A DNA stretch of 44,529 nucleotides from Escherichia phage SP1. The DNA is taken from the sequence record PV610739.1. One strand, written 5' to 3'. A program made the translations under genes and the position numbers. Positions 41,286 to 41,545 of the stretch are shown piece by piece. A model generated the notes under the pieces. The model saw nothing but the letters and a program-made list of their open reading frames with translations. It was not told where the DNA came from and did not search any database. Each line of letters starts with the position of its first letter. Within the stretch, counting starts at the first letter, position 1.

Positions 41286-41545
41286 TCTCCGATTGGTTAA
41301 TTTAAGTATTCGGTGCGGTATGCCCCGTCAACGAGGTGAATAATAGATTGGTTGCAGGCGGGGTGTCAACAACTAATTTCAAAAAAAAAGCGCCGAGGCA
41401 AAATGCGACGGCGCTAACCAATAAGAGACAATGAGACGTGATTATTATTACACGCGTGCGCGCCCGTTTCAATATACAAAAGGAGTTGACACCCCGCATT
41501 TTTAGGTGTAGTTTCGTTGGTCATTAACCAATAGGAGACAGAACA
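41286..41545. promoter_or_regulatory. divergent promoter/operator region
   Basis: GTTGACACCCCGC on both strands (41355-41367 revcomp, 41484-41496); TAACCAAT-GGAGA units before both divergent start codons; ATTGGTTGC at 41346; palindrome TTGGTCATTAACCAA at 41517-41531. Confidence 0.5.

Follow-up and report, generated by a model that had tools for sequence, protein, structure and literature searches.

The window analyzed here, the whole 44,529-nucleotide (nt) stretch of Escherichia phage SP1 DNA in sequence record PV610739.1, contains a 266-bp gap that separates two divergent operons and that carries in its interior a minus-strand promoter followed by a hairpin and a T-run, which together are predicted to form the gene of a small RNA (sRNA) of about 57 nt. 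The leftward operon is a replication/recombination operon whose products are a 173-amino acid (aa) acidic protein (phrog_3127), two small proteins, and a DUF2800/PD-(D/E)XK nuclease, and the products of the rightward operon are a 109-aa protein bearing a helix-turn-helix (HTH) domain at its C terminus (HTH_23, Sigma70_r4_2) and a 754-aa primase-helicase. The region is matched by 165 phage records, the best of them being those of Escherichia phages RuthEpting_Bas85 and vB_EcoS_WF5505 (~95% identity), and nearly all of the matching records belong to the genus Dhillonvirus (HK578/SO-1-like lytic siphoviruses). Judged from its sequence, the phage of the window is a Dhillonvirus, a lytic coliphage.

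The region was compared with 33 other Dhillonvirus loci taken from GenBank phages, IMG/VR, and metagenomes, which together with the window make 34 loci and 29 distinct sequences, and the conservation of each segment was measured as identity to the window across 27 distinct relatives. A further locus, L037 (OQVL01056812.1), was left out of the alignments because its contig breaks within the hairpin; the last ~45 nt of this contig, after the break, resemble an Illumina adapter (..ACACTCTTTCCCTACACGACGCTCTTC) and are an assembly artefact. The features of the region are collected in Table 1.

Table 1. Features of the divergent control region and copies of the genome-wide box (positions of the window)
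Feature	Coordinates	Strand	Sequence and remarks
Start region of the leftward 173-aa gene (SD1)	41277..41299	-	TAACCAATCGGAGA (41299..41286), 6-nt spacer, ATG (41279..41277); predicted target 1 of the small RNA
P_left, sigma70-type promoter	41340..41369	-	TTGACA (41369..41364), 18-nt spacer, TATTAT (41345..41340); 11/12 matches in promoter scan
GCAACCAAT box	41347..41355	-	in the P_left spacer, abuts the -10; copy of the genome-wide motif
Predicted small RNA	41381..41439	-	~57 nt (55-59); predicted start 41439-41437 (5-7 nt after the -10), 3' end in the U-run
Predicted intrinsic terminator of the small RNA	41381..41415	-	stem AGCGCCG/CGGCGCU plus inner 3-bp helix (41415..41389), U9 (41389..41381)
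Predicted 5' seed of the small RNA, single-stranded	41415..41438	-	5'-(A)CGUCUCAUUGUCUCUUAUUGGUUA-3'; antisense of the third copy TAACCAATAAGAGA
24-codon open reading frame, judged non-coding	41431..41505	+	overlaps P_sRNA and the P_right -35
P_sRNA, sigma70-type promoter	41444..41472	-	TTGAAA (41472..41467), 17-nt spacer, AATAAT (41449..41444), TG one base upstream (extended -10)
Alternating purine-pyrimidine tract, 14 nt	41450..41463		ACACGCGTGCGCGC, includes palindrome CACGCGTG; fills the P_sRNA spacer
P_right, predicted promoter	41486..41514	+	TTGACA (41486-91), 17-nt spacer, TAGTTT (41509-14); predicted start near 41520-41522
Dyad TTGGTcattAACCAA (TTGGT-N5-ACCAA)	41517..41531	+	overlaps the P_right start site and directly precedes the Shine-Dalgarno sequence
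Start region of the rightward 109-aa HTH gene (SD2)	41525..41548	+	TAACCAATAGGAGA, 7-nt spacer, ATG (41546); predicted target 2 of the small RNA
tGCAACCAAT copies, first part	41/72(-), 3318/3341(+), 10990/11004(+), 27095/27107(+), 27068(-), 30159/30170		motif search
tGCAACCAAT copies, remainder	31831/31848(+), 34789(+), 38604/38620(-), 41348(-), 44163/44198(-), 44480(+)		motif search

A Predicted Small RNA Gene within the Gap

A promoter scan detected, some 60 nt ahead of the hairpin and T-run, the sigma70-type promoter P_sRNA, which scores 10 of 12 matches plus the TG of an extended -10 and which had been missed in the first-pass annotation of this DNA. P_sRNA is conserved over its entire length, spacer included (mean identity 0.986; 22 of 29 positions invariant), and the HK578 record annotates a promoter at the same position. 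All of the substitutions that the relatives show in the alternating tract of the spacer are transitions, which preserve the alternation, and the tract may respond to supercoiling as a Z-DNA-prone element or serve as a palindromic operator, a weak suggestion because transitions are common anyway.

The stretch of 5-9 nt between the inner -10 and the seed is variable (mean identity 0.815; 3 of 8 positions invariant), and it is followed by the segment with the highest conservation of all, the seed itself (41415-41435; mean identity 0.995, 20 of 21 positions invariant), which does not change in the 34 loci save for a 1-nt deletion in one lineage. The IMG/VR and metagenome loci widened the Dhillonvirus diversity that was sampled and the seed stayed invariant in them, so that they contributed more evidence of conservation and no covariation. 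In the minimum-energy fold the seed is unpaired, and the unpaired 5' stretch of the predicted RNA amounts to about 24-30 nt.

The minus-oriented hairpin with its run of nine T residues, already pointed out between the promoters in the first-pass annotation, is real; it folds with -16.7 kcal/mol (z = -2.8), and hairpin and T-run together show a mean identity of 0.963 with 25 of 34 positions invariant. Among 11 distinct hairpin sequences we observed two compensatory pairs (GC to UA and GC to CG) and no broken one, and in the most divergent lineage (L016, L034, Ioannina, and LM40P1) GCGCCG/CGGCGC has become TCCCCG/CGGGGA. The length of the T-run varies between 8 and 14 nt in the relatives. In the WF5505 record the hairpin carries a terminator annotation, and a "terminator" is also listed under the CS16 match. 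Taken together, the inner promoter, the seed, and the hairpin are, in these alignments, the best-conserved part of the intergenic region, and they make it probable that a small minus-strand transcription unit of ~57 nt exists at this place.

A search of Rfam 15 returned nothing at gathering score in the whole window, and a permissive search (E <= 1) of the locus of one relative and its ~135-nt leader insert (described below) gave chance-level matches only. No RNA gene appears among the feature names of the 100 matched phage-record rows listed. Three promoters are annotated in the HK578 GenBank record (JQ086375) in the same order and orientation as here, and WF5505 has the hairpin as a terminator, but neither presents these elements as an RNA gene, and none of the records checked joins the inner promoter and the terminator into such a gene or notes a complementarity to the flanking ribosome-binding sites. 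Our literature searches yielded neither a transcript map nor a regulatory model nor a report of a small RNA for the genus Dhillonvirus.

The distribution of the seed was followed with a 17-mer. Among viral contigs it was present only in those of Dhillonvirus size, apart from five chance matches in contigs of ~7-98 kb that all share one unrelated sequence. In 185,579 bacterial genomes it gave 28 scattered matches, none of them in a record titled as an enterobacterium, where ~70 were estimated by chance; being at or below chance level, these matches indicate no prophage or host copy of the seed. The nearest outgroup, Salmonella phage GRNsp27, whose primase-helicase is 44% identical, has the same divergent layout with a 158-bp gap that lacks the inner unit, and no comparable unit was found in the gap of Kagunavirus fTaEco03. 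Phage ORH_001 was discarded as an outgroup because its gene layout is not comparable. In this comparison the predicted small RNA unit is specific to the genus Dhillonvirus.

Complementarity of the Predicted RNA to Both Flanking Start Regions

The unit TAACCAAT[C/A]GGAGA stands at 41286-99(-) and 41525-38(+), 6 and 7 nt ahead of the start codons of the two divergent genes, and a third unit with one mismatch lies at 41415-28(+); these three matches compare with 0.75 expected, and only one of 100 shuffles reaches three. Such units before both starts, and the third copy, had been noticed in the first-pass annotation, and the similarity turned out to be longer than was described there, since in a repeat search the third copy and the SD2 copy agree over 16 nt (94%) and the start regions of the two genes over 23 nt (83%). 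The SD1 region is well conserved (mean identity 0.961; 14 of 20 positions invariant), and the SD2 unit shows a mean identity of 0.778 with 9 of 21 positions invariant.

Because the inner promoter and terminator make up a predicted minus-strand transcription unit, the third copy, TAACCAAT-AAGAGA, is most likely not a ribosome-binding site but the template of the unstructured 5' end of the small RNA. It looks like a decayed duplicate of the start region of the right gene (TAACCAATA[A/G]GAGACA, with the ATG after a 5-nt deletion) that is read backwards, and the backward transcription of a decayed duplicate would be a plausible origin for an antisense regulator.

The seed is complementary to UAACCAAU(A/C)GGAGA(CAG), that is, to the Shine-Dalgarno sequence of each flanking first gene together with the 8 nt that lead into it. 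With SD2 it can form a continuous duplex of 17 pairs at -23.1 kcal/mol. This is the best of 63 start regions, and among 17,796 genome windows only two come before it, the template of the RNA itself and one GC-rich site; the latter, at 7585-7624(-), reached -24.1 via a bulged helix in the whole-genome duplex scan and was judged spurious. The duplex with SD1 comprises 16 pairs with one C.U mismatch (-17.2 kcal/mol) and, when pairing is scored without gaps, takes second place among the 63. Shuffling the seed 2000 times never produced one that attains both duplex energies, and the complementarity to the target start regions exceeds chance. When the full predicted RNA was cofolded with the two leaders, the ddG values were -15.6 (SD2) and -15.3 (SD1) kcal/mol, and the terminator hairpin remained intact.

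Several observations weigh against the view that this complementarity serves to pair the RNA with its neighbors. There is no covariation between seed and targets; the seed and SD1 are nearly invariant and therefore carry no information on pairing. SD2 drifts in relatives (TAACCAACCGG.., ..CTGAGGG..) without a change in the seed, and in most of them the duplex falls to between -16 and -18 kcal/mol. In HK578, which has a different right-hand gene, the start region of this gene pairs at chance level (-14.2; reached by 91 of 1000 shuffles), and in L016/Ioannina both SD1 (TAACTAAAC) and the seed (the 1-nt deletion) have changed and the pairing drops to -12.7. Moreover, GGAGAC...ACAATG is common to many start regions of the phage, so that part of the complementarity is generic anti-Shine-Dalgarno pairing. 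Finally, a DNA motif found throughout the genome has AACCAAT as its core, and the units could resemble one another because a protein binds them. On the other side, the start region of the different right-hand gene of L036 still pairs well (-19.5; 10 of 1000 shuffles).

As to the genes themselves, HK578 and the metagenomic locus L036 have, in place of the HTH gene, a longer gene unrelated to it (142 aa in HK578; L017 1612-2040 and L036 1017-1490) whose product also ends in an HTH. The replacement gene brings its own leader without TAACCAA, the swap point lies just after the P_right -35, and the small RNA unit and the left target are retained.

The same inner promoter could serve as an upstream promoter of the leftward operon, in which case the hairpin and U9 would be a regulated attenuator, the short RNA would be a terminated leader, and the long transcript made once termination is overcome would silence the first gene in cis. 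The promoter, the terminator, P_left, and the left gene do lie in series on one strand, and in the fold of the 177-nt read-through transcript the seed pairs with SD1 in cis (-45.1 kcal/mol, z = -2.4). However, no antiterminator pairing is evident, as the seed is unpaired and the terminator is the sole stable local helix, and there is neither a minus-strand leader peptide nor a riboswitch or leader family known to Rfam. P_left is, in addition, near consensus (11/12), and hence the leftward operon needs no read-through, and the better match of the seed to the rightward start region would be left unexplained. We consider attenuation improbable and favor a small RNA that acts on both leaders.

A Genome-wide Box and the Possible Role of a Protein

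The AACCAAT sequence occurs 18 times in the window, against an expectation of 5.6 +/- 2.4, and none of 100 shuffles reaches this number; CAACCAA is enriched about fourfold, with 23 copies in the window and 25 in the divergent Ioannina, at homologous places, versus ~6 expected. Most AACCAAT copies have the longer form, tGCAACCAAT(n)TA.., and these are mostly paired and intergenic (Table 1), and two of them form the palindrome TGCAACCAAcctATTGGTTGCA at 30157-30178. The tGCAACCAAT box is probably the binding site of a phage regulator or a promoter element. The copy at 41347-55 belongs to this class, since it has the GCAACCAA(T) core, is intergenic, and occupies a homologous position in the relatives; AGATTGGTTGCAG of the P_left spacer is invariant in all of them, the remainder of the spacer being variable, and the promoter at 38641..38613 shares with P_left the arrangement -35/N8/GCAACCAA.

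A second element, the exact TTGGT-N5-ACCAA dyad, occurs three times in the window (72-86, 10982-96, and 41517-31), for which length and base composition give an estimate of ~0.04 exact copies, and at the three homologous places in Ioannina. Each dyad lies directly 5' of the Shine-Dalgarno sequence of a gene that is first in its operon (starts 104+, 10965-, and 41546+). The dyad is a candidate for a dimeric operator at the start site or, alternatively, for a 5-bp leader hairpin recognized by a translational regulator.

These data raise the possibility that the AACCAAT units around the gap are sites for a phage protein, possibly the 109-aa HTH protein, and act as DNA operators or as RNA translational operators, so that the factor would control both divergent operons and others along the genome and the short transcript would be incidental or have some other job. 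This amounts to the one-factor idea of the first-pass annotation applied to another motif, and a small RNA could exist alongside it. It accounts for the enrichment of AACCAAT, for the maintenance of paired intergenic tGCAACCAAT copies at homologous places in Ioannina, for the invariant box in the P_left spacer and the same layout at 38641..38613, and for the three exact dyads, that of the P_right leader included, and the product of the right-hand gene has indeed a C-terminal HTH. Nevertheless, the three units of the gap read TAACCAAT and not GCAACCAAT, with the GC that is nearly constant in the genome-wide copies missing from all three, and in the L016/Ioannina lineage SD1 (AACTAAA) and the third copy (AACC-AT) have lost the core while the GCAACCAAT boxes are intact. 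Conservation at the third copy, moreover, runs 13 nt past AACCAAT, through GAGACAATGAGAC, and into the hairpin and the promoter, which a protein site leaves unexplained. Nor does anything link the HTH protein to a particular site, a sequence search of the PDB having given generic HTH matches only. As an account of the units in the gap, protein binding thus seems doubtful. Since the TAACCAAT units differ from GCAACCAAT and decay in Ioannina while GCAACCAAT persists, a protein layer was regarded as something added to the RNA, and the third copy was not attributed to it; that a factor acts genome-wide and on both promoters is plausible, with the HTH protein as a candidate.

The Outward Promoters and the Open Reading Frames of the Gap

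The first-pass annotation had described the gap as a divergent control region with outward-facing -35 boxes, and this description holds, both TTGACA hexamers being conserved as parts of the promoters predicted for the two operons. In P_left both hexamers are kept in the relatives, and the HK578 record annotates a promoter there; the T-run and the AAATTAG upstream of it would act as an A/T-rich UP-like element. P_right was not listed in the promoter scan because its -10, with only three of six matches, is below the threshold, and HK578 and L036, the loci with a different right-hand gene, have TAGTAT at this position. The P_right -35 is invariant in the relatives, the -10 together with the first 10 nt of the leader has a mean identity of 0.988 (15 of 16 positions invariant), and the spacer has one of 0.778 (7 of 17). 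A second leftward promoter, TTGACG-17-TACTTA (41329..41301), was rejected for lack of conservation.

The 5' untranslated region (UTR) of the leftward gene has a mean identity of 0.573 with 5 of 34 positions invariant. In 19 of 34 related loci it contains an insert of ~135 nt (L002 2109-2270, phage bob), which the window lacks (41308/41309). The insert shows a multi-helix fold with a consensus energy of -41 kcal/mol, in which one stem position is AU in six cases, UA in three, and CG in one, and it has no Rfam match; it may represent a structured leader element or a small mobile insert.

The outward -35 boxes are part of a 13-mer, GTTGACACCCCGC, that occurs exactly on both strands, at 41358-41370(-) and 41485-41497(+), followed by the spacers of 18 nt on the left and 17 nt on the right. 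In the first-pass annotation the symmetry of this repeat was taken to suggest one switch, and a 24-codon open reading frame (ORF) after the third copy was put forward as a candidate leader micro-ORF; read as a model, the repeats would be operators and the ORF a translated leader peptide. The repeat is exact, and an ORF of 19-26 codons is open in all relatives. However, the CCCCGC half of the 13-mer is lineage-specific and varies on both sides (CCCTGC, CCTTGC, CCATGC, and CCAGTT on the right; CCCATC and TCCC-TT on the left), and the relatives retain in common only the -35 hexamer, as TTGACA(C)/TTGACT, which deprives the mirrored 13-mer of its standing as a shared operator.

With respect to the ORF, it does exist, although six bases to the left of the 41437-41511 first assigned to it, at 41431-41505. 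Its ATG lies 55 nt upstream of the P_right -35 and its end precedes the predicted start site, so that it is not part of that mRNA, and no plus-strand promoter-like site precedes it, within the limits of a scan that would miss weak promoters. Its Shine-Dalgarno-like AAGAG box is only 3 nt from the ATG, its middle is read in two frames among the relatives (MRR[DE]YYYTRARPFQY versus MRRELLLHACAPVSI), the hairpin and T-run are oriented opposite to it, and the constrained nucleotides beneath it are those of the minus-strand promoter. We judge the ORF to be non-coding and not a leader peptide, and the switch with a translated leader to be scarcely credible.

A 65-aa ORF on the minus strand (41302..41499) was likewise rejected, since the variation of the T-run between 8 and 14 nt breaks its frame. 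The annotated leftward gene of Ioannina (735 nt; L018/L024 36723-37457) spans the whole gap, and, in view of the same variation in T-run length, its extension and the 65-aa ORF are, as we read these sequences, annotation artefacts.

Another transcript-based function would be that of a replication primer or origin-activating transcript, the gap being then the phage origin. The unit lies between two replication-gene operons, beside the primase-helicase gene, in the segment with the lowest G+C of the 2-kb profile (0.475). Yet the gap contains no iterons or DnaA-box-like repeats, the GC skew tracks the direction of transcription and does not single out the gap, and iteron-like GCGGGACA arrays lie elsewhere (13 copies vs 1.8 expected), all of which makes an origin in the gap very unlikely. 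Clusters of this 8-mer are found at 44257-44359 (six direct copies), in a non-coding stretch of ~500 bp after the primase-helicase gene that also has three AACCAAT boxes, and at 16759-16849 (four direct copies); the arrays are candidates for an origin or a packaging site.

The start region of the leftward gene, 41277-41299(-) (TTAACCAATCGGAGATATACCATG), closely resembles the T7 gene 10 leader of pET vectors (TTAACTTTAAGAAGGAGATATACATATG); its counterpart in the Ioannina lineage is TTAACTAAACGGAGAC. This hints at a possible second function of the TAAC.. box, as an enhancer of translation of the epsilon type. The idea that AACCAAU extends the pairing with the 3' end of the 16S rRNA was rejected because the elements stand in the wrong order.

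Proposed Model and Comparison with Known Systems

According to the model that we propose, the gap would be an early control region with three host-type (sigma70) promoters, in which P_left and P_right fire outward and the host RNA polymerase makes, early and abundantly, an RNA that starts at about 41438 from P_sRNA and would be terminated ~57 nt downstream by the hairpin and U9 (41415..41381). This RNA would pair with both leaders and block the binding of ribosomes, and the outcome would be that the first gene of each divergent operon is damped or timed. In any transcript that runs past the terminator, this anti-Shine-Dalgarno stretch would be present as well and would fold back in cis onto the start region of the leftward gene. 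That the ~57-nt RNA pairs with both flanking ribosome-binding sites as a form of early control is, in our estimation, a little short of an even chance, and its repression of the flanking genes in the way just outlined is a tentative proposal, held with somewhat less assurance. The complete scheme, in which a dedicated anti-Shine-Dalgarno RNA, made from a host-type promoter that ranks among the best conserved of the genome, throttles the first gene of both replication operons through a seed derived from a duplicate of the start region of one target, and in which a protein layer (boxes within promoter spacers and dyads at the 5' ends of leaders) is superimposed on it as a two-layer timing circuit within 266 bp, must be regarded as rather unlikely in its entirety.

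In its logic, the predicted RNA is closest to the c4 RNA of P1/P7 (immI), a short phage RNA that acts in trans via short complementary boxes on the ribosome-binding region of a neighbor gene, these target boxes being repeated copies of the sequence that encodes the regulator. The c4 RNA is cut from the operon transcript that carries its targets, functions in temperate-phage immunity, and couples a translational block to termination upstream of ant; in contrast, the RNA predicted here would have its own promoter and terminator, belong to a strictly lytic phage, and address two divergent operons. The sar RNA of P22 and the OOP RNA of lambda, which are among the closest in build, are RNAs of ~70 nt with constitutive sigma70 promoters and intrinsic terminators that are located in phage control regions, and sar blocks the ribosome-binding site of ant. 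Both are cis-antisense RNAs overlapping their target gene, whereas the predicted RNA overlaps no transcribed gene and its two leaders are 90-150 bp away. The build and the predicted action are those of RybB, ChiX, and the prophage-encoded DicF, trans-acting enterobacterial RNAs which have their own promoter, an unstructured conserved 5' seed, a single terminator hairpin, and a long U tail (usually the module bound by Hfq), and which act by occlusion of the Shine-Dalgarno sequence; the RNA proposed for Dhillonvirus differs in having no sequence or Rfam relationship to them and in targeting the genes of the phage itself and not those of the host.

Significance for the Dhillonviruses

Few E. coli phages are isolated as often as Dhillonviruses, as the number of records that match this region illustrates, and accounts of the group describe members included in the BASEL reference collection and characterised as candidates for therapy and biocontrol. 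For the annotation of these genomes the proposal would imply a correction, since several records place ORFs across the gap. The tGCAACCAAT box and the leader dyads provide a starting point for the temporal control of the phage. Temperate phages and prophages are well-known sources of regulatory small RNAs; in strictly lytic phages, to our knowledge, few such RNAs are understood. If the proposal is true, the Dhillonviruses would offer a compact and testable case, a conserved RNA directed against replication operons of the phage itself.

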